A stretch of DNA of 64,000 nt from Candidatus Omnitrophota bacterium (GCA_028716245.1 JAQUQW010000001.1:232793-296792); one strand, 5' to 3'. Positions 1-13,549 are shown, counted from the stretch's first letter. The notes: generated by a model not told the origin, from the letters alone. A program made the numbers and translations.

Positions 1-596
1 AGCGCCAGGTTATCCACTTTACTCCTGATGTCGGTAAGCCCAAAGTCTTATCGGCGCAAGAGAAAATTACCCTTATTAATCCCGAGGTGAAAGTCGTTAC
101 CTATCAGAGCAGGGTATATTCAGGTAATATCGCCGGAATTATCAAGGATTATGATTTTATTATCGATGGGACGGATAATTTTGCCGCTAAATTCCTGATT
201 AACGATGCCTGTGTCTTCGGCGCTAAAGCGTTTTCCCACGGCGGAATTTTACGCTTTGACGGGCAAGCAATGACCTATCTTCCGGGCCAGGCATGTTACC
301 GGTGTATATTCACCGGCCCTCCTCCGAAAGGCGCGGTGCCCACTTGTTCGCAAGCCGGTATCTTAGGGGCGGTTGCCGGTATGCTGGGTACGATCCAGGC
401 AGCTGAGGCCTTGAAATTTCTTATTGGGAAAGGAGAGCTTCTTCTGAACCGGCTGTTAATCTTTAATGCTTTGGATATGAAGTTCCGCCAGGCGGAATTT
501 AAAAAAAATCCGGATTGTCCTGTCTGCGGCAATAATCCAACAATTAAAGAATTGATTGATGAAGAACTGCCGGCTTGTGATTTAAAAAAGAAATGA
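1..596 (+). CDS. ThiF/MoeB/MoeZ-family E1-like adenylyltransferase (HcyF/MoeZ-like). The 5' end is cut by the window edge.
   Basis: The reading frame is open from nt 3 with no stop. The translation ...DVGKPKVLSAQEKITLINPEVKV... matches the ThiF/MoeB fold. The C-terminal CxxC...CPVC zinc motifs are present. Confidence 0.8.
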   Translation, partial: RQVIHFTPDVGKPKVLSAQEKITLINPEVKVVTYQSRVYSGNIAGIIKDYDFIIDGTDNFAAKFLINDACVFGAKAFSHGGILRFDGQAMTYLPGQACYRCIFTGPPPKGAVPTCSQAGILGAVAGMLGTIQAAEALKFLIGKGELLLNRLLIFNALDMKFRQAEFKKNPDCPVCGNNPTIKELIDEELPACDLKKK

Positions 597-991
597 AAAT
601 AACCAAGAAAGTAATTAAAGAAATGGTGGAATATGCTAAGAAAGAGGCGCCGCTTGAGGCCTGTGGGTATCTTGGCGCCAAAGACGGCATCATTACAAAA
701 ATATATGCGTTGACCAATATTGATAAAAGCAATGAGCATTTTTCTTTTGAGCCAAAAGAGCAATTCCTGGCAGTTAAAGATGCCCGTGTTCAAGGATTGG
801 AGATTTGCGCTGTCTACCATAGCCATCCAGCCAGCCCGGCCCTCCCGTCACAGGAGGATGTAAAATTGGCGTATGATCCGGATATGAGTTATTTTATTAT
901 TTCCCTGGCAGGCTGCAATGGACAGGTGCGGGCATTTTCAATAAAGAGCGGTGAAGTGAGTGAAATTAATCTGGAGGTTGTTGATGATTAA
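593..991 (+). CDS. JAMM/MPN+ (Mov34) metalloprotease, Mec+/HcyD/QbsD-like
   Basis: JAMM motif E...HSHPASPALPSQED (HxHx7Sx2D), 132 aa. Its 5' end overlaps the ThiF-like gene and its 3' end (989-991) overlaps the start of the next gene, consistent with translational coupling. Confidence 0.8.
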   Translation: MKITKKVIKEMVEYAKKEAPLEACGYLGAKDGIITKIYALTNIDKSNEHFSFEPKEQFLAVKDARVQGLEICAVYHSHPASPALPSQEDVKLAYDPDMSYFIISLAGCNGQVRAFSIKSGEVSEINLEVVDD

Positions 992-3362
992 AGGGTATGA
1001 TTTACCTGTTGGCTTGGATGCGGAGATCACCCAGCTTGAAGAGTTGATCCGCAAGCATAGGGCAGGTGAGGTTTCGGCAACCGAACTTAAGGCTCATCGC
1101 GTGCCTTTTGGGGTATATGAACAGCGTCAAGCCGATACCTACATGGTGAGGATCAGGTGCGCCGGAGGTTTTGTTACTCCTCAGCAGCTGGAAAGTGTCT
1201 CTGCCATCGCTCAGGAATACGGAGTAAGCGACCTGCATATTACCTCCCGGCAGGAGCTGCAAATTCATTACGTGGAATTGGATGATATTATTACTGTGAT
1301 GCGGCGCTTGAAAGAGATTGGCCTTTCTACAAGGGGAGGCGGCGGCAATACTGTGCGCAATATTGCCGTTTGCGATGATGCCGGGATTGACCCGCAGGAA
1401 GCCTTCGATGTGTCTTTGTATGCCGCAGCCCTAACCACAAGGATGATTGCCGAGGGGGATTCCTGGAATTTACCGAGAAAATTTAAAATTGCTTTTTCCG
1501 GCTCCGCAGAAGATAAGGGATATGCCACTCTTTCTGACCTGGGTTTTATTGCGCAAATAAAAAATAAGTTGGAGAACAATGGTTTGGTTTCCAATAGCCA
1601 AAGCCGCGGGATAAAAGGATTTAGGGTTTATGCGGCCGGAGGCCTGGGCGCTAAATCAGCCGAAGGAAAACTTCTGTTTGATTTTATCCAGGCAAATGAA
1701 GTTTATCCTGTTGCCGAGGCGTTGAAAAGTGTTTTTTTTAAATACGGTAACCGCAGGAATAAGCATGCTGCCCGCCTGCGCTTCTTATGGCAGAACCTCG
1801 GTGCAGAGGAGTTTAAGCAAAAATTTTACCAAGAGTATGACCGGATTAAGGTTGATGGTTTTGAGCCGTTAGATATCATTGATTATGGGCAGAGTTTATC
1901 TTCTCCCGGTTTGCCCAAAGCTAAGCCTTTAGATGCGCGGGGGTTTTCGTTATGGAAAACGCGTTTTGTAAGGCAGCAAAAACAGGAAGGGTTATTTTCG
2001 GTATTAATTCCTATAGAGCTGGGTTTTATTCCTTGCGCGCAGGCCGCTAAATTGGGCCGGTTCCTGAAATCCTTTGGTGCTGATGTAATAAGGATGACCC
2101 GGGATCAGAATTTTCTGATACGCAATATTCCTTTGGATTATTTGGGCGCTGCCTATAATTTTTTTAAAGAGACAATACCTGAATCAAGCCAGCCTGCTCT
2201 TTACGGCAAAATATTATCTTGCGCCGGAGCGGCTACCTGCCAGCTTGGGATTTGCCTTTCCCGTCAGGCAGCAGGCGCCCTGATCGATGAGCTTAAAAAA
2301 AGCGGTTTGGATTTGGATAAAATAGGAGACATTAAAATTAATATCTCCGGATGTCCTAATTCCTGTGGCCACCATCCGGCGGCTGATTTGGGTTTTTCCG
2401 GTAAGGCATTGAGGAATGCCGACAGGTTATATCCGGCATATAATGTGTTTGCCGGAGCTGTTATTGGTGATGGTAAAACTAAACTCGCAGAATATACCGG
2501 AGAGATTCCTGCTAAGGCGCTGGTTCTGTTGGTAAAGGATCTTCTAAAGGCTTATATATCCAAAACCGGACAGTTTAGTAATTTTCGGGAGTATATTAAT
2601 GGTGAAGGAAAAGTGGATTTAAGAGAAATTATTCTACGTTATTCTAAGGCGCCTGATTTTGATAAAGATAAAAATTATTATTTTGACTGGGGAGCGGATA
2701 AACTTTTTTCTTTAGCCGAGCGTAAGGCAGGGGAATGTTCCGCCGGATTTTTCGATCTTCTTGAAATGGATCTAAATAATATAAAAAATACTCAGGCGGT
2801 ACTTGCAACAGGCGCGCAGGATGAAAGGGAGAAGCTGCTCGGTGAGCTGGTATATTATGCCAGCAGGGCGCTTTTGATTACCCGCGGGCTTGACGCAAAA
2901 AACCAGGAGGAGGTATATGCGGGATTTCTTAAATATTTCATCGAAACAGGATTGATTGATGGGGCGTTCAGGGAGATCATTACTATTGCTCAGCATGGTG
3001 ATCTTAAAGAGATTTTAGCAAAGCAAGCTCAGGCATTTGAACTGGCTAAGGCAGTGCAGGCGCTGTATGAAACTATGGATAATAGTTTTAATTTTAAAAC
3101 AACCGTTTCTGCGCAAGAATCCCGTCAGGAACAAATATCCGCAGCAATAATCAAAGATCTGCGGGGAGTTGTCTGCCCGCTTAATTTTGTAAAAACCAAG
3201 ATTGAGCTGGCTAAGCTAAAATCCGGAGATACCTTGGAAATTTGGCTTGATGACGGCGCTCCAATTGAAAATGTCCCCGGGTCAGTCAAAGCCGAAGGCC
3301 ATAAGATTATTTCGCAGAAAAGAATCGCCAATTACTGGTCAGTGGTAATCAATAAAAAATGA
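984..3362 (+). CDS. Assimilatory (ferredoxin-type) sulfite/nitrite reductase hemoprotein with a C-terminal TusA-like domain
   Basis: Two nitrite/sulfite-reductase half-domains are present. The siroheme-[4Fe4S] cysteine cluster CAGAATC...CPNSC is present. The last ~75 aa carry the TusA CPxP motif (VVCPLNFVKTK). The ATG at 984 overlaps the JAMM stop (ATGATTAA) and has a GGAGG RBS at 974; the ORF track offers an alternative start at 960. Confidence 0.8.
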   Translation: MIKGYDLPVGLDAEITQLEELIRKHRAGEVSATELKAHRVPFGVYEQRQADTYMVRIRCAGGFVTPQQLESVSAIAQEYGVSDLHITSRQELQIHYVELDDIITVMRRLKEIGLSTRGGGGNTVRNIAVCDDAGIDPQEAFDVSLYAAALTTRMIAEGDSWNLPRKFKIAFSGSAEDKGYATLSDLGFIAQIKNKLENNGLVSNSQSRGIKGFRVYAAGGLGAKSAEGKLLFDFIQANEVYPVAEALKSVFFKYGNRRNKHAARLRFLWQNLGAEEFKQKFYQEYDRIKVDGFEPLDIIDYGQSLSSPGLPKAKPLDARGFSLWKTRFVRQQKQEGLFSVLIPIELGFIPCAQAAKLGRFLKSFGADVIRMTRDQNFLIRNIPLDYLGAAYNFFKETIPESSQPALYGKILSCAGAATCQLGICLSRQAAGALIDELKKSGLDLDKIGDIKINISGCPNSCGHHPAADLGFSGKALRNADRLYPAYNVFAGAVIGDGKTKLAEYTGEIPAKALVLLVKDLLKAYISKTGQFSNFREYINGEGKVDLREIILRYSKAPDFDKDKNYYFDWGADKLFSLAERKAGECSAGFFDLLEMDLNNIKNTQAVLATGAQDEREKLLGELVYYASRALLITRGLDAKNQEEVYAGFLKYFIETGLIDGAFREIITIAQHGDLKEILAKQAQAFELAKAVQALYETMDNSFNFKTTVSAQESRQEQISAAIIKDLRGVVCPLNFVKTKIELAKLKSGDTLEIWLDDGAPIENVPGSVKAEGHKIISQKRIANYWSVVINKK

Positions 3363-4762
3363 AAACGGGAAAAGGTAAGGTATATTTAGTTGGCGCCGGC
3401 CCCGGAGCTAAGGATTTGATTAGCTTAAGAGGCCAGCAGGTGCTGCAGCAAGCAGAAGTTGTAATCTACGACTATCTTGTGGATAGCCAAATGCTTGAGG
3501 ATGTAAATCCGCAGGCAAGATTGATCAGCTGCGATAAATTTGGTAAGAGGCTGCCGCAAGAAGAATTTTTTGATTCTCAGGCTAAAGTCAACTCCGCGAT
3601 GGTAAAATTTGCAAAAAAAGGCAAATTAGTGGTGCGTTTAAAAAACGGGGATCCTTTTATCTTTGGCCGGGCTCAGGAGGAAATAGAAGCGCTTTTAAAA
3701 AATCGTATAGAGTTTGAAGTTGTTCCGGGAATTACCGCCTCCCAGGCAGCATCTTGTTTTTCCGGTATACCTTTGACCAGCCGTAAAATTTCATCCAGCG
3801 TCATATTTATCAGCGGCCGGCAGGCAAAAGGAGAAAAACCGGCTATTGATTGGAGCTCTATTTCTAAAAATGAAACTATCGTGTTGTATATGGCGGTAAA
3901 AAATATCCGCCAAATAGCCAAACAATTGATTAAAAATGGTAAACCTGCGGATACCCCGGTGGCTGCGATTTCCCAGGCAGGAAAGATTAACCAAAAAGTT
4001 GCCATCGCTAAACTTGAGAATATCGATAGGATAGTTAAGAAAAATAAAATTACTGCCCCTGCTATTTTTATCATTGGTCAGGTTGTGCGTTTGGGTGAAA
4101 AGTTGAATTGGTTTAAAAAAAATAAGCGTGTTTTGTTTACAGGGCTTTCGGCAAAAAGGTTTTTTTTAAAAGGAAATTATTTCCATCTGCCGATGATCAA
4201 GATCGAACCCCTTGACAATTATGCGGATTTTGACAGGCATATTAAGCTAATCCGAAGTTTTAACTGGTTAGTTTTTACGAGCCGTTATGCTGTGCAGTAT
4301 TTTTTCCAGCGCCTGGGTAAAATTGGCCTGGATACGCGTTCACTGCAGAATATAAAAATTGCGGCAATCGGCTCTTCCACAGCCGCAAGCCTTAGGAACC
4401 TGGGGATTATTGCGGATTTAATTCCTAAAGTTGAAACATCAAAAGGCCTGCTCAGTGCCTTAAAGAGGATCTCCTTAAAAGGCAGAAGGATTTTTTTGCC
4501 TCATTCTGATATTTCGGACAAAGGGTTGACAAAAGGGCTGGAGAGTTTTGGTGCTAAGGTTACCGGCTGTGCTGCCTATAGAAATATTATGCCCGAAAAT
4601 CTTCCTAGTTTCGATCTGAATAAGTTTGATGAAATAATTTTTACCAGCCCATCGTGTGTCCGTAATTTTATTAAGCATTATGGGAAACCGCCAAAAAAAA
4701 CGGCTATAAGGTGCGTCGGGGATGTTACTCTGGCCCAAGCTAAAAAGTTACGTTTATTATAA
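3359..4762 (+). CDS. cobA-hemD: Uroporphyrinogen-III C-methyltransferase fused to uroporphyrinogen-III synthase (CobA/HemD)
   Basis: SUMT N-terminus VYLVGAGPGAKDLISLRG...VVIYD followed by a HemD-like C-terminal half, 467 aa. Confidence 0.85.
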   Translation: MKTGKGKVYLVGAGPGAKDLISLRGQQVLQQAEVVIYDYLVDSQMLEDVNPQARLISCDKFGKRLPQEEFFDSQAKVNSAMVKFAKKGKLVVRLKNGDPFIFGRAQEEIEALLKNRIEFEVVPGITASQAASCFSGIPLTSRKISSSVIFISGRQAKGEKPAIDWSSISKNETIVLYMAVKNIRQIAKQLIKNGKPADTPVAAISQAGKINQKVAIAKLENIDRIVKKNKITAPAIFIIGQVVRLGEKLNWFKKNKRVLFTGLSAKRFFLKGNYFHLPMIKIEPLDNYADFDRHIKLIRSFNWLVFTSRYAVQYFFQRLGKIGLDTRSLQNIKIAAIGSSTAASLRNLGIIADLIPKVETSKGLLSALKRISLKGRRIFLPHSDISDKGLTKGLESFGAKVTGCAAYRNIMPENLPSFDLNKFDEIIFTSPSCVRNFIKHYGKPPKKTAIRCVGDVTLAQAKKLRLL

Positions 4763-4764
4763 AA

Positions 4765-5697
4765 ATGCAAAACATATCTGCTAAAGACCTGATTATGCCC
4801 TATTTTGTTATTGAGGGGCGCAACAAGAAAGAACCTGTTGCGAATATGCCTGGTATTTTTAGATTGACTATTGATAATCTCTTGGAGGAAATATCAGAGG
4901 CAAAACGGCTGGGTATATCTAGAGTGCTTCTTTTCGGAGCCTGCCCCCGGCAATATAAGAATGAGTCGGCAAGTTATGCCTACGCCAAAAATAATATTGT
5001 ACCCCGGGCAGTAGCAGGATTAAAGCGTAAAATTAAAGGCGTGTCTGTTATTACCGACGTATGCCTCTGCGCTTATACTTCGCACGGCCACTGCGGCATC
5101 CTTAATAAAAAAAATAAAATAGATAACCGAAAAACTCTGGAGGCACTTTCTAAAATTGCCTTTGTGCATGCTGATAGCGGAGCAGATTGGGTTGCCCCTT
5201 CGGCAATGGCAAAAAAACAAGTATCCGCAATAAGAAGCGCGTTGGATAAAAACGGATTTTCTAAGGTAAAAATTATGGGCTATTCTGCTAAATTCGCGTC
5301 GAATTTTTACGGCCCATTCCGCGATGCAGTAGATTCCGCCCCTAAATTCGGAAACAGGAAGGCTTATCAATTGGATTATACTGATGCAAAAAAGGCGCTA
5401 AGGGAGATAAGGGATGATATCCGGGAAGGCGCGGATATGGTAATGGTCAAACCGGCTTTAAGTTACCTGGATATCATTAAAGAAGCAAAACAGAAATTTA
5501 ATTATCCGTTAGCTGTTTATAATGTTAGCGGAGAGTTTGCGTTGGTAAAAATGGGGGCTAATATCGGTCTTTGGCAGGAGAAGGAGGTTGTTTTTGAGAT
5601 CATTACTTCCCTAAAACGCGCCGGCGCCGATTATATTATTACCTATCACGCAAAAGATATTGCGCAATGGATAAAACAGAAAAATTATTTAATCTAG
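4765..5697 (+). CDS. hemB: Porphobilinogen synthase (delta-aminolevulinate dehydratase)
   Basis: ALAD family. The active-site region MVMVKPALSYLDI is present, 310 aa. Confidence 0.9.
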   Translation: MQNISAKDLIMPYFVIEGRNKKEPVANMPGIFRLTIDNLLEEISEAKRLGISRVLLFGACPRQYKNESASYAYAKNNIVPRAVAGLKRKIKGVSVITDVCLCAYTSHGHCGILNKKNKIDNRKTLEALSKIAFVHADSGADWVAPSAMAKKQVSAIRSALDKNGFSKVKIMGYSAKFASNFYGPFRDAVDSAPKFGNRKAYQLDYTDAKKALREIRDDIREGADMVMVKPALSYLDIIKEAKQKFNYPLAVYNVSGEFALVKMGANIGLWQEKEVVFEIITSLKRAGADYIITYHAKDIAQWIKQKNYLI

Positions 5698-6908
5698 CCA
5701 AGCGATACTTAGTCGGCGGAGTAGACAGCCCGGTGCGCAGCTTTAACTATGTAGGCGGCCGTCCGGTATTGATCAGGGCTGGAAGGGGCGTTAAGGTATT
5801 TGATTATAATAATAAAGAATACCTTGATTATGTTCTTTCCTGGGGAGCGGCAATCTTAGGGCATGCTCATCCGGCCGTGCTCAAAATTATTAAACAAAAA
5901 TTAGAATCAGGTTTAAGTTTTGGCACAACTAATCAAACTGAAATTGAGTTAGCGCAGGAAATCACCCGCGCAATCCCCTTTATTAAGAAAATACGCTTTG
6001 TTAATTCCGGGACTGAAGCGGTGATGGCAGCAGTAAGGCTGGGCCGGGCGTATACAGGAAGAGATAAAATCGTAAAATTCACGAATTCTTACCATGGCCA
6101 CGCGGATTATCTTTTGGTTAAGGCCGGTTCCGGGTTAGCAACTCTGCAGATCCCGGAAAGCGCCGGCGTGCCGAAAGATTTTATTAAACACACACTGATA
6201 GTTCCTTTTGGCGACAAAGAAGCGCTTGAAGCGGTATTTAAAAAATATAAAAATGAAATTGCCGCGGTTTTGGTTGAACCGGTAGGCGGTAATTACGGTG
6301 TTTTGCCGGTGAATATTGGATTTCTGAAGGCAGTAAGGAGTTTGACTAAGAAATATGGATCCCTGCTGATCTGCGATGAAATAATTAACGCATTTCGTTT
6401 TCGATACGGGGCAGCTTCTCAAAGGTTCGGGATTGCTCCGGATTTAATCTGTTTAGGGAAAATTATCGGGGGTGGCTTGCCTATTGGTGCTTATGCGGGA
6501 AGCGCAAAGATCATGAATAAATTAGCTCCATTAGGAAAGGTTTATCAGGCTTCTACTTTTTCCGGTAATCCTATTGTTATGCAGGCAGGTTTGGCTACGC
6601 TCAAAATACTCAAAGGATCAAACTATAAGCGCCTTAAGAATTTGAATGAATATTTGTGTAGTAATCTAAAAAAAGAGGCGTTGATTTGCGGTATAAAATT
6701 AGAAATAAGCCATTATGAAAGTATGTTTAGCTTACGATTTAAATCTAAAAATGAGTTTGCCAGATTTTATAAATTAATGCTTGATCAAGGAATATTTTTG
6801 GCCCCCTCGGAATTTGAAGTAAACTTTTTATCCTTTGCGCATACGCAAAAAGAAATAAATAAAACTTTATTTGCTGTAAAATTGGTTTTTAAAAGAATGG
6901 AGAATTAA
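5667..6908 (+). CDS. hemL: Glutamate-1-semialdehyde 2,1-aminomutase
   Basis: N-terminus LVGGVDSPVRSF. Class-III PLP aminotransferase fold, 413 aa. Confidence 0.9.
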   Translation: MDKTEKLFNLAKRYLVGGVDSPVRSFNYVGGRPVLIRAGRGVKVFDYNNKEYLDYVLSWGAAILGHAHPAVLKIIKQKLESGLSFGTTNQTEIELAQEITRAIPFIKKIRFVNSGTEAVMAAVRLGRAYTGRDKIVKFTNSYHGHADYLLVKAGSGLATLQIPESAGVPKDFIKHTLIVPFGDKEALEAVFKKYKNEIAAVLVEPVGGNYGVLPVNIGFLKAVRSLTKKYGSLLICDEIINAFRFRYGAASQRFGIAPDLICLGKIIGGGLPIGAYAGSAKIMNKLAPLGKVYQASTFSGNPIVMQAGLATLKILKGSNYKRLKNLNEYLCSNLKKEALICGIKLEISHYESMFSLRFKSKNEFARFYKLMLDQGIFLAPSEFEVNFLSFAHTQKEINKTLFAVKLVFKRMEN

Positions 6909-7003: not shown

Positions 7004-8311
<1,308 letters not shown>

Positions 8312-8317
8312 AATATA

Positions 8318-8358
8318 ACACCCCGCGCTTATAAGGAATTGCGCGGGTGTGCCTTTAT
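8318..8358 (+). terminator. Stem-loop between metY and cysK. The stem is ACACCCCGCGC/GCGCGGGTGT. It may be an attenuator or a weak terminator.
   Basis: A near-perfect 10-bp GC-rich inverted repeat with a 12-nt loop, followed by CCUUUAUGG, which is only a weak U-tract. Confidence 0.35.
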
Positions 8359-8374
8359 GGCAAGGAGGTGTCTG

Positions 8375-9310
8375 ATGGGAAAAATATTTTCTGATATTAC
8401 TCAAACAGTTGGGAAAACCCCGTTAGTCAAGCTCAATCGTATCGGAGAAGGTTTGGGGGCAACCATACTGGCTAAATTAGAATCTTTTAACCCGCTCTCC
8501 AGTGTAAAAGACAGGATTGGAACGGCGATGATCGAAGACGCGGAGAAAAGAGGCGTGCTTAAAAAAAATACCACGATTATTGAGCCCACCAGCGGTAATA
8601 CCGGGATTGCCTTGGCATTTGTCGCCGCTGCTAAAGGTTATAAATTAATCCTGACTATGCCTGATACGATGAGCATAGAGAGAAGGCAGCTTTTGGCGAT
8701 TTTTGGCGCGCAGTTAGTTCTGACTCCGGGCGCCGAAGGGATGAAGGGGGCGGTAAAAAAAGCCGAGGAGTTAGCTAAAGAGATTCCGGATGCGATTATT
8801 TTGCAACAGTTTAATAATCCGGCTAATCCGCAGATTCACCGTAAAACTACTGCCGAAGAGATTTGGGATGATACTGACGGTAAAATTGATATTCTTGTAT
8901 CCGGAGTCGGCACCGGCGGGACAATTACTGGAGTATCTGAAGTGATCAAGAAAAGAAAACCAAGCTTTAAGGCGATTGCGGTTGAACCCGATGCTTCGCC
9001 GGTTTTATCCGGAGGCGCTGCCGGCCCGCATAAGATCCAGGGTATTGGCGCCGGATTTATCCCGCAGGTTTTAAACCGGGAAATTATTGATGAGGTTATC
9101 CGGGTTACTAACGATAATTCCGGAGAAACCGCTCGGCGCCTGGCAAAGTCGGAAGGGATATTAGCCGGGATTTCAAGCGGGGCGGCATTGTGGGCGGCGT
9201 TAGAAGTGGCTAAACGTAAGGAAAATAAAGGGAAGGTCATCGTGGTTATTCTTCCGGATACCGGCGAGCGGTATCTGAGCACCTGGCTTTTTCAAGAGGT
9301 AAAAGTATGA
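8375..9310 (+). CDS. cysK: Cysteine synthase (O-acetylserine or O-phosphoserine sulfhydrylase; CysK/CysM family)
   Basis: PLP fold type II. The N-terminus is [11 protein letters not shown]. The lysine site SVKDR and the glycine loop GTGGT are present. A strong RBS AAGGAGGTG lies 5 nt upstream of the ATG at 8375; the ORF track's 8339 start is unlikely. Confidence 0.9.
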
Positions 9311-10464
9311 TTAAAGAAAAAATAAACCCGGCCAATAGTGTGGGAGTGGTTAAAACTCAAAGTTTTACTTTTGAATCTTTAAAACTTGAGAGCGGGGAGA
9401 AGTTTGGCCCGGTTACTTTGGCTTATGAAACATATGGCGTTTTAAATAAAGAGAAATCCAATGCTATTCTTATTGTGCATGCCCTTTCAGGCGATGCCCA
9501 TGCTGCCGGTCTGCATGAGGGAACTGATGATTTAGGCTGGTGGGATTCTTTTATCGGCCCGGGTAAAGCTTTTGATACGGAAAAATACTTTGTGGTTTGT
9601 TCAAATATACTCGGCGGCTGTAAGGGGTCAACCGGCCCTTCAAGCGTAAATCCTAAAACCAATAAGCCGTACGCTTTGGATTTTCCGTTAATTAGCATTA
9701 ACGATATAGTAAATGCCCAGAGGCGTTTAATTGGCCATTTAGGCATCGAAAAGTTACTTTCTGTGGTCGGCGGCTCAATGGGCGGACAGCAGGTTTTATC
9801 GTGGTTAGCTAACCATGCGGATATAATTCATAGCGCAATTCCGATTGCCACCACGATCAAACATTCTCCTCAACAAATAGCATTTAATGAGGTAGGCCGC
9901 CAAGCGATTATGGCCGACGCCCATTGGAAATCCGGCAATTATTATGACGGCCCGTTTCCTTTAAAAGGATTGGCCGTAGCCAGGATGATCGGCCATATAA
10001 CCTATATGAGCGACAGCTCGATGGCTGAGAAATTCGGCCGCCAAAAAAAAGACAGCGCCGAAGCGTTTAAATTTACGGCTGATTTTGAAGTCGAGGGGTA
10101 TTTACGTTATCGCGGCGATAATTTTGTCAAGCGCTTTGACGCAAATTCCTATCTTTATATAACCAAGGCAATGGATAATTTTGACGCCTCAGGCGCCAGG
10201 CCATTTTGTGAAGTTTTAGCCGGCATCAAGGCCAAGGTTTTGGTCATATCTTTCAAATCCGATTGGCTGTATCCGGCTTATCAATCAAAGGAGATAGTTA
10301 AGGCCTGCAAGCTTGCCGGCATTGCGACAACCTATTGTGAGATTGATTCAAATTATGGCCACGACGCGTTTCTTTTGGAAGTGGAAGAGGAGACGCATTT
10401 GATCAAACATTTCCTTAAAAAAATATTTTATGCTTATGAGGTGACCGGTGTCTACGGAGAGTAA
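9307..10464 (+). CDS. metX: Homoserine O-acetyltransferase
   Basis: Alpha/beta-hydrolase MetX family. The region [15 protein letters not shown] and the catalytic GGSMGG are present. Confidence 0.9.
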
Positions 10465-11047
10465 AGGGATTCAATTGGACCACCAAGTCATACTGGACTT
10501 AGTTGATCAGCAATCCAGCGTTTTAGACTTAGGCTGCGGCGCGGGGGATCTTTTGTATCTTCTGATTAAAGAGAAAAAAGTGAGCGGCCAGGGTATTGAG
10601 ATCGATGACCAGGCAATTTATAAATGCGTCGCTAAGGGCTTAAATGTTTTTCACGGAGATATCGACAGCGGACTTGCCGAATTCAGCGATAAATCTTTTG
10701 ACTATGTGGTGCTTAATCAAAGCATGCAGCAGATTTTGCATGTTGATAAGGTGCTCACCGATGCCTTACGGGTGGGTAAAAAGGTAATCGTAGGATTTCC
10801 CAATTTTGCCTATTATAAGTCCAGGCTGCAGATGTTCTTTCAGGGCAGGTCTCCGGTAACCCCCAGCCTTCCTTATCAATGGTATGAAACTCCGAACCTG
10901 CATTTTTTGAGCATAACTGATTTTAAGGATTATTGCCGTTTGAAAAAGATCAATATTGAGCGCAGTGTTTGTGTCGGGGAAAGAAGGGAAACTCCGTTTT
11001 TACCCAATTTATTTGGCCAGACCGGAATATTTTTGATCTCAAAATAG
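10448..11047 (+). CDS. metW: Methionine biosynthesis protein MetW
   Basis: 199 aa methyltransferase-like protein with VLDLGCGAG. It overlaps the metX 3' end, which is the canonical metXW arrangement. Confidence 0.8.
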
Positions 11048-11395: not shown

Positions 11396-11596
11396 ATGCG
11401 TATAACCTTAAACGGTAAAGTCGAGGATGTTGATGCCCAACTAAACCTTAGTGAGCTTGTTTTAGCTAAGGGCCTGCGCGTTGAAAATGTGGTTATTGAA
11501 TATAACTTTCGTATTCTGCCTAAGGGAGAGTGGTTTGATACACTTTTAGGCGAGAATGATTCTATTGAGATCATAAGTTTTATTGGGGGCGGCTAA
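11396..11596 (+). CDS. thiS: Thiamine biosynthesis sulfur-carrier protein ThiS
   Basis: 66 aa ending ...IGGG. ThiS/MoaD fold. Confidence 0.85.
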
Positions 11597-11597
11597 T

Positions 11598-12425
11598 ATG
11601 GAAGATTTTTTAGAGATAGCGGGAGAAAAATTAAGTAACCGGCTTTTTATCGGAACAGGGAAGTTCTCTAGCTATCCGATAATGAAGCAAGCTTTAGAAG
11701 AGGCGAAGGCCCAGGTTGCTACGGTGGCTTTGAGAAGGGTTGACGAGAGCTCTAAAACAGAGAATATCATGGATTATATTCCGCAGAAATGTAAAGTTAT
11801 GATCAATACTTCCGGAGCCAGAGACGCACAAGAAGCGCTGCGTATTGGCCGCCTGGCAAAAGCAGCCGGAGCCGGGAACTGGATAAAAATTGAAGTTATC
11901 CGTGATAATAAATACTTGCTTCCCGATAGTATTGAGACTTTTAAGGCAGTTGAAGTTTTAGCCAAAGAAGGCTTTGTTGTTTTTCCTTATATGAGCCCGG
12001 ATTTATCCATTGGCAGAAGAATGGTTGATGCCGGAGCCAGCGCAATTATGCCTTTGGGTTCTCCGATAGGCAGCAATCGCGGGGTAAAAACCCGTGAGCT
12101 TATCGAAATAATGGTTAATGAAATTAAGCTGCCGATTATTGTTGACGCGGGCCTTGGAAAACCTTCAGAAGCTTGTGAATGTATGGAGTTAGGTTGCGCG
12201 GCAGTATTGGTTAATACCGCCATTGCCGTTTCCGAAGATCCGGTAAAGATGGCCAAGGCTTTTAGTCAGGCAGTTTATGCCGGCAGGCTTGCCTATTTGT
12301 CAGGAATCCCGGCAATGGGAAAAACAGCCCGCGCTTCCAGCCCCTTGACTGGATTTTTAAGAGAAGATAAACCACAAGGCGATGGTTTGGCTTCCGATAG
12401 CCAAAGCCATAATAAACCGCAATGA
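11598..12425 (+). CDS. thiG: Thiazole synthase
   Basis: TIM-barrel ThiG with IGTGKF...VMINTSGA...[14 protein letters not shown]. The ATG at 11598 directly follows the thiS stop. The alternative TTG at 11583 is less likely. Confidence 0.9.
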
Positions 12426-13549
12426 GTTTTTATGGTGTCTATTCCCAAAATAAAGATTTAGACCTAAAGAAAGCTTTTAGTTTTATTTCACCTGCCTCCA
12501 TTCAGGAATCCTTAGAAAAAAATAATCTGGATACAAAACAATTCCTTGGATTGCTTTCTCCGCAAGCCGAAAATAATCTTGAAAGTATGGCTCAGAAAGC
12601 GCAGGCGATAACCAGGAATTATTTTGGCAATACCATCCAGCTTTATGCTCCGATGTATCTATCCAATTATTGCGATAATTCCTGCCTTTATTGTGGTTTT
12701 AACCTGAACAATGACATCCAAAGGAGACAGCTTACTCTGGAAGAAGTGGAAAAAGAGGCGCAATTTATTTCCTCTTCGGGGTTAAAGCACATTCTTATTT
12801 TAACCGGGGAATCAAGGCTTAAGAGCCCGGTCAGCTACATTCAGGATTGTGTCAATGTTCTAAAAAAATATTTTACTTCAATATCTATTGAAGTATATCC
12901 TTTGGCTGAAAATGAATACGCCCGGTTAGTTGTCGGCGGGGTGGACGGCTTGACAATCTATCAGGAAGTATATGATGAACAGCTTTACGCAAAAATACAT
13001 ATTTGCGGCCCTAAAAAAGATTATAAATTCCGTCTGGATGCTCCGGAAAGAGGCGCAAAAGCCAGAATGAGAAGCGTTTCTATCGGGGCCTTGCTTGGTT
13101 TAGGAAACTGGAGAAGGGAAGCATTCTTTCTGGGGTTGCACGCAAAATACCTGCTTGATAAGTTTCCGGATGTTGAAATCGGGATATCTGTCCCCAGAAT
13201 TCGGCCGCAAAACCACCAGCCGCAAGTCGGCGATTTTAAACCAATTTGCCAGGTAAGCGACAGAAATGTCATCCAGATAATTTTGGCTTTCAGGATTTTT
13301 TTGCCCCGGCTTGGTATTGCAATCTCAACGCGGGAAAATCCGGAATTCAGGGAAAATCTTTTATCTCTTGGTATTACCAGGATGTCAGCCGGTTCAGCGA
13401 CTAATGTTGGCGGCCATACTCTTTACAAGGAAGAAAAAGAGCAGTCTTCTCAGTTTGAGATTCAGGATCAAAGAACCGTGGGCCAGATCAAAGCTGTCCT
13501 TGAAGGAAAGGGATACCAGCCGGTTTTTAAGGATTGGCTGTATTTGTAG
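12422..13549 (+). CDS. thiH: 2-iminoacetate synthase (tyrosine lyase), radical SAM
   Basis: [10 protein letters not shown] radical-SAM motif. 375 aa. Follows thiG. Confidence 0.85.

Follow-up and report, generated by a model that had tools for sequence, protein, structure and literature searches.

Operons that combine genes for a ThiS/MoaD-type carrier, a JAB protease, an E1 enzyme, SirA, sulfite reductase, and O-acetylhomoserine sulfhydrylase were listed by Iyer, Burroughs, and Aravind in 2006 (Table 1, row 4e; PMC1779556). In such operons, the E1 enzyme always occurs without a rhodanese domain, and SirA (the same protein as TusA) is always present and is predicted to stand in for the rhodanese; in some actinobacteria, ThiS is fused to the C terminus of sulfite reductase (PMC1779556). 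Here we analyze an operon of this type in a 64,000-nucleotide stretch of DNA (the window) from a Candidatus Omnitrophota bacterium (GCA_028716245.1, JAQUQW010000001.1:232793-296792), where one gene encodes a siroheme sulfite reductase extended at its C terminus by a conserved arm with an invariant cysteine (Cys585), a helical bundle, and a tethered TusA-type domain with a second invariant cysteine (Cys731). The locus shares with the neighborhoods of the 2006 study both the operon type and the prediction that SirA replaces a rhodanese. It differs in that SirA was described there as a neighborhood protein and only ThiS was mentioned as fused to sulfite reductase; the text of that study contains no Sir-TusA fusion, no invariant Cys585 arm, and no helical domain (PMC1779556).

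The gene set of the carrier-dependent pathway of Wolinella succinogenes agrees with that of this operon as completed from its relatives: a JAMM protease, a ThiF-like E1 enzyme without a rhodanese domain, and a sulfite reductase in the window, and a C-terminally extended ThiS-like carrier and a MetY of the thiocarboxylate type in relatives. The differences are that the relatives analyzed here often have the carrier fused in frame to MetY and that the reductase bears the module of cysteine arm, bundle, and TusA domain. Krishnamoorthy and Begley (JACS, 2011) are said to have reconstituted the Wolinella pathway: HcyS-Ala is reportedly trimmed by HcyD and adenylated by HcyF, and HcyS is then thiocarboxylated with sulfide from Sir and used by MetY, with no role for a TusA domain. 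In Mycobacterium tuberculosis, the sulfite reductase NirA (1ZJ8) is among the proteins closest to the core of the fused protein (E = 2e-34 in the sequence search and 2e-28 in the fold comparison), and CysO/MoeZ/Mec/CysM constitute a carrier-thiocarboxylate route with a JAMM protease. However, NirA has no C-terminal module, and MoeZ has a rhodanese domain of its own.

Two further systems resemble parts of the module. Escherichia coli TusA has the same fold and a conserved cysteine at the N terminus of helix 1, but it is a free protein with a CPxP motif that is fed by a cysteine desulfurase, whereas the domain described here has a CPxN motif, is fused, and presumably has sulfite reductase as its source of sulfur. 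In E. coli, TusA belongs to a relay that runs from IscS through TusA and TusBCD/TusE to MnmA; it also reportedly carries a persulfide and feeds MoaD thiocarboxylation via the rhodanese-less MoeB (Dahl and coworkers, 2013). The partnership of DsrAB with DsrC is a possible analogue, in which a siroheme sulfite reductase likewise works with a protein that has a pair of conserved cysteines and bears one of the pair on a flexible arm, but our module is not homologous to DsrC and the core is of the assimilatory, monomeric type.

A full-text literature search, from whose reach the papers on the Wolinella pathway fell outside, returned no paper on a sulfite reductase-TusA fusion, on the Cys585 arm, or on the bundle. 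An earlier note on this DNA had known of no characterization of this fusion, and for the fused protein this stands; the idea that SirA serves in place of a rhodanese in such operons, on the other hand, was already in print (PMC1779556). The operon and the idea of SirA as a rhodanese substitute are published, then, and the three-part protein with its invariant cysteine arm is widespread but, as far as could be found, undescribed. We conclude, with good support, that this protein is the enzyme that reduces sulfite in an operon for sulfur assimilation by way of a carrier protein.

A sulfite reductase with a two-cysteine extension

The gene is a single uninterrupted open reading frame (ORF) on the plus strand at window positions 984..3362, from the ATG at 984 to the TGA at 3360-3362, and encodes 792 amino acids (aa). 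The 800 aa of the earlier note would apply only if an alternative in-frame GTG at 960, which adds 8 residues, were the start. All homologues start at the methionine equivalent to ATG 984, and so does the identical 792-aa NCBI protein (P0001, labeled [quoted passage not shown]). A profile hidden Markov model search bears out the proposed fusion and the architecture and domain boundaries given for it. In the core, Pfam finds NIR_SIR_ferr (E = 1e-31) and NIR_SIR (E = 5e-39), each in two stretches, and at residues 725-791 it finds TusA (PF01206; E = 5e-19; 68 bits, where the gathering score is 28.6), so that the C terminus is TusA-like as had been claimed. The AlphaFold2 (AF2) model of the fused protein, built on 64 homologues, has a mean predicted local distance difference test (pLDDT) score of 85.7 and a predicted template modeling score (pTM) of 0.82. 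Counts of invariance out of 64 refer to full-length representatives from clustering at 50% that are pairwise <50% identical.

The cysteine cluster read earlier as CAGAATC...CPNSC is present as C413-x5-C419 and C457-x3-C461 (codons at 2220, 2238, 2352, and 2364), the ligands of the iron-sulfur cluster and siroheme, and all four cysteines are invariant (64/64). Apart from these, Cys585, and Cys731, no cysteine of the window protein is conserved among the representatives. The nearest solved structures by sequence are the tobacco and spinach nitrite reductases and M. tuberculosis NirA (E ~1e-34 to 1e-36), and the fold neighbors of the core are the same proteins (tobacco nitrite reductase 3b0l and NirA 1zj8; Foldseek E ~2e-28, target template modeling [TM] score 0.76-0.79). 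In HMMER alignments, the anion-binding residues R56, R125, and K166 correspond to R109, R179, and K224 of the tobacco enzyme, and K168 corresponds to its N226; K166 and K168 are invariant in the alignment of 64 homologues. Sulfite reductases have a lysine at the N226 position (K217 in E. coli) and enzymes of the nitrite type have an asparagine. The significance of this position in tobacco nitrite reductase was reportedly established by Nakano and coworkers in 2012, and the PDB includes N226K mutants of that enzyme (3vlx). Because K168 is of the sulfite reductase type and the neighboring genes are those of sulfur assimilation, we take sulfite to be the substrate. A six-electron reduction of sulfite to sulfide is the supported prediction for the core, made from its context of genes for 3'-phosphoadenosine 5'-phosphosulfate (PAPS) reductase, CysD/N, a permease, MetY, CysK, and siroheme synthesis. 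None of the NCBIfam equivalog cutoffs for NirA, ferredoxin-nitrite reductase, CysI, and Sir is reached (at best 217 bits against 523, for the NirA family, with the others falling well short of theirs), and we therefore regard the core as a distinct subfamily. The window protein also has a 14-residue insertion in the reductase, KLENNGLVSNSQSR (window 1563-1604, residues ~194-207), which is missing in the other 19 homologues aligned and predicted to be disordered (AF2 pLDDT <50); at this site, 57 of the 64 representatives have 5 residues and the window protein has 19.

The segment between the core and the TusA domain had been described as a helical linker of ~170 aa with no recognized family. 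A helical bundle is indeed predicted in it with AF2 pLDDT of 82-97, and no Pfam family covers it, but it is not a mere linker: it is a conserved domain with an invariant cysteine of its own, Cys585 (64/64), and a folded bundle. The arm (residues 560-596) has the motif DKNYYFDWG-x5-FS-x6-GECSAG-FDL-E-D. Apart from the active site, no other stretch is as highly conserved in alignments of 20 and of 64 homologues, and D568, W569, G583, E584, C585, and G588 are invariant in the larger one. Cys585 itself lies in the motif [GAP]EC[SGA][AG]G, in a loop that has the lowest AF2 confidence of the middle region (pLDDT ~57). Conserved residues of the bundle are R628, L630, L631, R634, F648, F652, L694, and M698, and its C-terminal end reads LYExMDNSFNF. 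Searches of the middle region against Pfam at E<=10 gave a chance match to PriX alone, and a sequence-profile search against the PDB gave nothing below E 0.5. The best Foldseek matches of the bundle in the PDB are weak ones to HEPN-domain proteins (E 0.15-0.5); we did not file the bundle as HEPN because the Rx4-6H motif is missing, there being no conserved histidine in residues 589-700.

The TusA domain has the two-layer alpha/beta fold of E. coli TusA (3lvj_C; Foldseek TM 0.87, root mean square deviation 1.9 A), with its cysteine, Cys731, in CPLNF at the start of helix 1. Cys731 (64/64) and Pro732 are invariant. The motif is not the CPxP first read from the sequence but CPxN, which occurs in 77/77 fused homologues with Asn734 invariant; standalone TusA paralogues in some such operons have CPMT. 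The tether in front of the domain is 15-45 aa long in the 64 representatives (median, 23), with pLDDT <50 at residues 708-717 of the window protein, and the model is consistent with the TusA domain being a mobile carrier on a low-confidence tether of variable length. Two proteins (P0094 and P0099; 650 aa) are natural variants without the helical bundle, in which GECSAG and the TusA cysteine are kept ~21 residues apart; P0099 occurs on five contigs of up to 426 kb. Because the bundle-less variant retains both cysteine elements, we consider the two cysteines, on the arm and on the tethered carrier domain, to be the conserved functional core of the extension.

The database search for such fusions shows that they are not rare but very widespread. 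More than 100 clusters at 90% identity, most of them from Omnitrophota, match over the whole length and contain each of the three Pfam domains, with identities as low as 46%. When a distant member served as the query, 6600 matches were obtained at E<=1e-30; the best 120 of the 6600 share this architecture without exception, and Nitrospinota, Nitrospirota, and Thermodesulfobacteriota are among them. With the C-terminal 242 aa as the query, HMMER found 135 clusters (50% identity) at E<1e-30; the full-length matches are essentially all 750-810 aa long, with the match at ~535-790. A scan of one genome per species, with a pattern that covered the GECSAG variant alone, found the middle domain encoded in at least 328 genomes. 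The taxa include Omnitrophota, Planctomycetia, Lentisphaeria, Ignavibacteriales, Calditrichota, Acidobacteriota, Verrucomicrobiota, Spirochaetes, Fibrobacterota, Desulfobacterales, Syntrophales, and Bacteroidales (Prevotella, Tannerella, Parabacteroides, and Dysgonomonadaceae). Among the 80 related genome loci that we kept, which span >10 phyla, the core, middle domain, and TusA domain are in one ORF at 79, and the same continuous ORF recurs across thousands of database proteins and independent assemblies. Positions 3130-3362 are thus not a separate gene produced by a frameshift, a possibility that the earlier note had kept in view. One apparently free-standing module of middle and TusA domains (among matches of ~250 aa) was examined, P0147 at locus L086; it is a piece of a full-length gene broken by a frameshift, and so gives no evidence for an autonomous module. 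In an uncultured Desulfobacterales genome (L071), the JAMM protease and the three-part reductase are in one stop-free frame, which may represent a four-part fusion, judging from the sequence.

Operon context and carrier proteins

The E1-like ThiF and the JAMM protease are encoded directly upstream of the reductase, and siroheme precursor genes follow it (Table 1). The fused gene starts 8 nt inside the JAMM gene (984-991), and its stop overlaps the cobA/hemD start as ATGA (3359-3362); because of these overlaps, we consider the three genes to be translationally coupled, as had been noticed from the sequence for the ThiF/JAMM side. The coupling of thiF and the JAB gene to the reductase is usual in relatives. 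At least one of ThiS, ThiF, and JAB is encoded within 6 kb at 58/80 loci, ThiF and JAB together at 51/80, and all three at 43/80, where a ThiS-like ORF stands alongside ThiF and JAB; the closest relative (L006) is one of these, and the window itself starts inside thiF. ThiF of the window has no rhodanese domain, and its orthologues of 268-275 aa consist of the ThiF domain alone. A hand-off of sulfur to a carrier protein, as the earlier note had suggested, fits this conserved operon and its E1-like enzyme.

In the contigs of homologues, the upstream order is PAPS reductase, a PHO4-type permease, a CysK/M-like protein, a ThiS-MetY fusion, thiF, JAMM, and the reductase; CysD/N is also seen in relatives' operons. 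The relatives' ThiS-like carriers have a near-invariant DFLYFMGGG, followed either by 1-25 extra residues or by a fused MetY paralogue. In the closest relatives (L001, L002, L004, L006, L009, and L012), the carrier continues in frame into a MetY paralogue of ~405 aa; the fusion gene lies upstream of thiF, a place that would fall just ahead of position 1 in the window. The best PDB match of this paralogue is W. succinogenes MetY (3RI6; 442 bits against 298 for the next), a further likeness to the Wolinella pathway seen in the closest relative. We take 3RI6 to be the thiocarboxylate-dependent MetY of that organism. The fusion amounts to a whole enzyme as a removable C-terminal extension and resembles ubiquitin-fusion precursors, which implies that the neighboring JAMM protease must cleave it. 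Carriers that are not fused to MetY (L007-L084, adjoining thiF) have FMGGG plus 1-25 extra residues and never end at GG itself. These ends fit obligatory trimming of the carriers by the JAMM protease, which would parallel that of HcyS-Ala by HcyD.

Several loci (L004:6859-7610, L025, L031, L034, L059, L067, L075, and L083) have an extra DsrE2-like gene and a standalone TusA with CPMT between thiF and JAMM, which suggests a longer sulfur relay in those lineages. PAPS reductase is adjacent at 11/80 loci and DsrE2 at 7/80.

Table 1. Features of the window (positions 5' to 3') and ThiS-MetY fusions at related loci (positions within each locus)
Feature	Position	Strand	Basis or remark
E1-like ThiF/MoeB adenylyltransferase, 3' part, cut by window start	3..596	+	Pfam ThiF E 7e-38, profile positions 91-238
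JAMM/Prok-JAB metalloprotease, HcyD/Mec-like	593..991	+	Pfam Prok-JAB E 3e-22
Whole fused gene: sulfite reductase core, Cys-arm/helical domain, and TusA, 792 aa	984..3362	+	ORF, Pfam, alignments, AF2
Siroheme/[4Fe-4S] sulfite reductase core, residues 1-555	984..2648	+	Pfam; PDB sequence and fold matches
Conserved arm with Cys585 (codon 2736-2738), residues 560-596	2661..2771	+	Homologue alignments
All-helical bundle, residues 589-700	2748..3083	+	AF2 pLDDT 82-97
Flexible A/E/K/P-rich tether, residues 701-722	3084..3149	+	Low pLDDT
TusA/SirA-type sulfur-carrier domain, residues 723-792, Cys731 codon 3174-3176	3150..3359	+	Pfam; Foldseek
cobA/hemD fusion	3359..4762	+	Pfam TP_methylase and HEM4
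hemB	4765..5697	+	Pfam ALAD
hemL	5667..6908	+	Pfam Aminotran_3
Conventional MetY	7019..8311	+	Pfam; PDB match
CysK-like pyridoxal phosphate (PLP) enzyme	8339..9310	+	Pfam
MetX	9307..10464	+	Pfam
MetW	10448..11047	+	Pfam
Canonical thiS (66 aa, ends IGGG-stop), thiG, thiH	11396..13549	+	Second ThiS-type carrier
ThiS-MetY fusion, L001	5368-6807		
ThiS-MetY fusion, L002	5344-6786		
ThiS-MetY fusion, L004	4552-5997		
ThiS-MetY fusion, L006	1712-3190		
ThiS-MetY fusion, L009 and L012			

In the window, the gene order is thiF, JAMM, the fused reductase, cobA/hemD, hemB, hemL, metY, the cysK-like gene, metX, metW, a tautomerase-like ORF, and thiS-thiG-thiH. The thiF reading frame is open from base 3; its product contains a pair of CxxC zinc motifs, and its C terminus lies 25 aa beyond CPVC. 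The JAMM protease has the motif HSHPASPALPSQED (HxHx7Sx2D) and matches the NCBIfam desampylase model at E 5e-18, below its cutoff. The siroheme precursor genes cobA/hemD, hemB, and hemL are also found 3' of the reductase in 36/80 loci. MetY of the window is best matched in the PDB by Thermotoga maritima MetY (7kb0, 604 bits), with 283 bits for the Wolinella enzyme (3ri6). In L001 and L002, too, thiS-thiG-thiH lies just downstream of the sulfur assimilation operon. Apart from the ThiF encoded upstream of the reductase, no other is visible nearby, and for this reason the same E1 enzyme and TusA module might also serve thiazole synthesis. Nearly all ORFs of >=150 aa in the whole 64-kb window are on the plus strand, with positive GC skew in every 2-kb bin. 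No tRNA genes or Rfam elements were found in the 64 kb, and no S-adenosylmethionine (SAM) or other riboswitch ahead of the Met/Cys genes.

A putative sulfur relay and its alternatives

In the reading that we prefer, to which we assign a probability of roughly 0.55, the protein is the assimilatory, ferredoxin-type siroheme sulfite reductase of an HcyS/ThiS-type operon for homocysteine and cysteine, and its C-terminal module relays sulfur to the ThiF-bound carrier adenylate in the place of a rhodanese. A relay from the reductase to the adenylated carrier is the most likely role of the module, with each of its sulfur-transfer steps a prediction. The precedent for a module that replaces a rhodanese is E. 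coli TusA, which feeds MoaD through the rhodanese-less MoeB; in E1 enzymes of the MoeZ/Uba4 type, the rhodanese domain is the sulfur donor.

PAPS reductase, CysD/N, and the PHO4-type permease (genes known from the relatives) would provide for the activation of sulfate and its reduction as far as sulfite, which the core would then reduce at the siroheme. The helical bundle would anchor the flexible Cys585 arm, with the TusA domain and its Cys731 on the 15-45-aa tether, and this module would take up the sulfur that the core produces. Once the JAMM protease has exposed the GG end of the ThiS-like carrier, the module would deliver the sulfur to the ThiF-bound acyl-adenylate of the carrier, and the resulting thiocarboxylate would be used by the Wolinella-type MetY. 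The two invariant cysteines would make a redox-neutral cycle possible, although this is conjecture throughout: a Cys585-Cys731 disulfide may capture HS- to give a Cys731 persulfide, the persulfide may attack the carrier-CO-AMP to form an acyl disulfide, and Cys585 may resolve the latter, so that carrier-COSH is freed and the disulfide is re-formed.

Several considerations weigh against this reading. The product of sulfite reductase is S(-II), whereas the usual cargo of TusA is S(0) obtained from a cysteine desulfurase, and we know of no experimental precedent for the proposed redox chemistry. Krishnamoorthy and Begley reportedly found in 2011 that the Wolinella carrier adenylate reacts with free bisulfide in vitro, and if free bisulfide suffices, a relay is not chemically required. 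The same operon also encodes a conventional MetY and CysK, which use free sulfide, and the addition of DsrE2 and a standalone TusA at some loci means that the fused TusA domain may not suffice or may have another partner. At 22/80 loci, the fused reductase has no ThiS, ThiF, or JAB within 6 kb. Several of these loci are short contigs, and many belong to Prevotellaceae/Bacteroidales (e.g., L033, L036, L037, L039, L042, L049, L050, and L060), in which siroheme synthesis genes are the sole genes flanking the fused reductase. In these gut and rumen bacteria, either the genes for ThiS, ThiF, and JAB are located at some other place in the genome or the module acts independently of a carrier.

A stricter version of the relay would operate in cis: the Cys585 arm would take sulfur directly from the siroheme and pass it via TusA Cys731 to ThiF-activated ThiS-like carriers, so that the sulfur of homocysteine and cysteine (possibly also of thiazole) is never free sulfide. 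Such channeling is close to what the earlier note had in mind, and we regard it as tentative, with the odds against it.

The reported bisulfide result from Wolinella, the free-sulfide users MetY and CysK in the operon, and the Prevotellaceae loci that have the fused gene without neighboring carrier genes speak, together with the noncanonical CPxN motif, for a different role, that of a scaffold or regulatory module. The reductase would release free sulfide as usual, and the bundle and TusA domain would dock to ThiF, the carrier, or MetY, or sense sulfur status by their redox state; local sulfide would be raised or activity gated without any covalent transfer of sulfur. We consider this rather unlikely: both cysteines are invariant at <50% identity, which is more than docking would demand, the bundle-less variant retains exactly the two cysteine elements, and the E1 enzyme has no rhodanese domain in operons most of which contain no other persulfide donor that we could see.

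The two-cysteine module could also act upstream of the siroheme as a substrate-side carrier. It might present protein-bound oxidized sulfur (a Cys-S-sulfonate or thiosulfonate, as with DsrE3/TusA) for reduction to a persulfide, or it might serve as the dithiol that resolves the Cys-S-SO3 intermediate of PAPS reductase, so that sulfite is freed beside the active site. The GEC[SG]AG loop loosely resembles the flexible ECGLH cysteine tail of PAPS and adenosine 5'-phosphosulfate (APS) reductases, and several such operons contain DsrE2-TusA pairs and PAPS reductase genes. TusA and DsrE proteins are reported to be able to carry thiosulfonate (PMC4175335). However, genes for neither PAPS reductase nor DsrE2 adjoin the reductase at more than the minority of loci counted above, no thioredoxin-like fold is present, and the sequence gives nothing to single out this direction of transfer, all of which makes a substrate-side role improbable.

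Interception in the manner of DsrC, for which Santos and coworkers reportedly provided the DsrAB/DsrC precedent in 2015, seems very improbable. The Cys585 arm would enter the substrate channel and capture partially reduced sulfur at the siroheme, and S(0) would be delivered directly as a persulfide or as a trisulfide spanning Cys585 and Cys731. An invariant cysteine on a low-confidence, presumably mobile loop right after the core, with a second on a tethered domain, is what such a mechanism would call for, but assimilatory sulfite reductases characteristically finish the six-electron reduction without releasing intermediates, and the module has no sequence similarity to DsrC. Finally, an assembly or frameshift artefact, conceivable a priori and actually seen in the one short database protein that resembled a free-standing module, can be dismissed, as can a nitrite reductase followed by a TusA gene unrelated to it, given the continuous ORF in thousands of independent assemblies, the sulfite reductase-type Lys168, and the sulfur assimilation context.

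Implications for sulfur assimilation

The preferred reading, a relay of sulfur from the reductase to the carrier adenylate, would alter the accepted scheme of sulfate assimilation in these organisms and explain how anaerobes escape the loss or toxicity of free sulfide. It would also define a domain, the GEC[SG]AG arm with its bundle, that currently has no Pfam family. If the relay were to run directly from siroheme to carrier, assimilatory metabolism would have its first counterpart to DsrAB-DsrC, and the relay would identify the long-missing physiological sulfur donor for systems of rhodanese-less E1 enzymes and ThiS-type carriers.

Public databases label these proteins inconsistently, as "sulfurtransferase TusA family protein" (NCBI) or "sulfite reductase (ferredoxin)" (JGI). 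The family is widespread, with at least 328 species-level genomes that include those of gut and rumen Bacteroidales. With the source of reduced sulfur and a candidate carrier containing two invariant cysteines united in one polypeptide, the family offers a compact test system for the route by which sulfur reaches carriers of the ThiS/MoaD/SAMP type under a rhodanese-less E1 enzyme in many bacteria and archaea.

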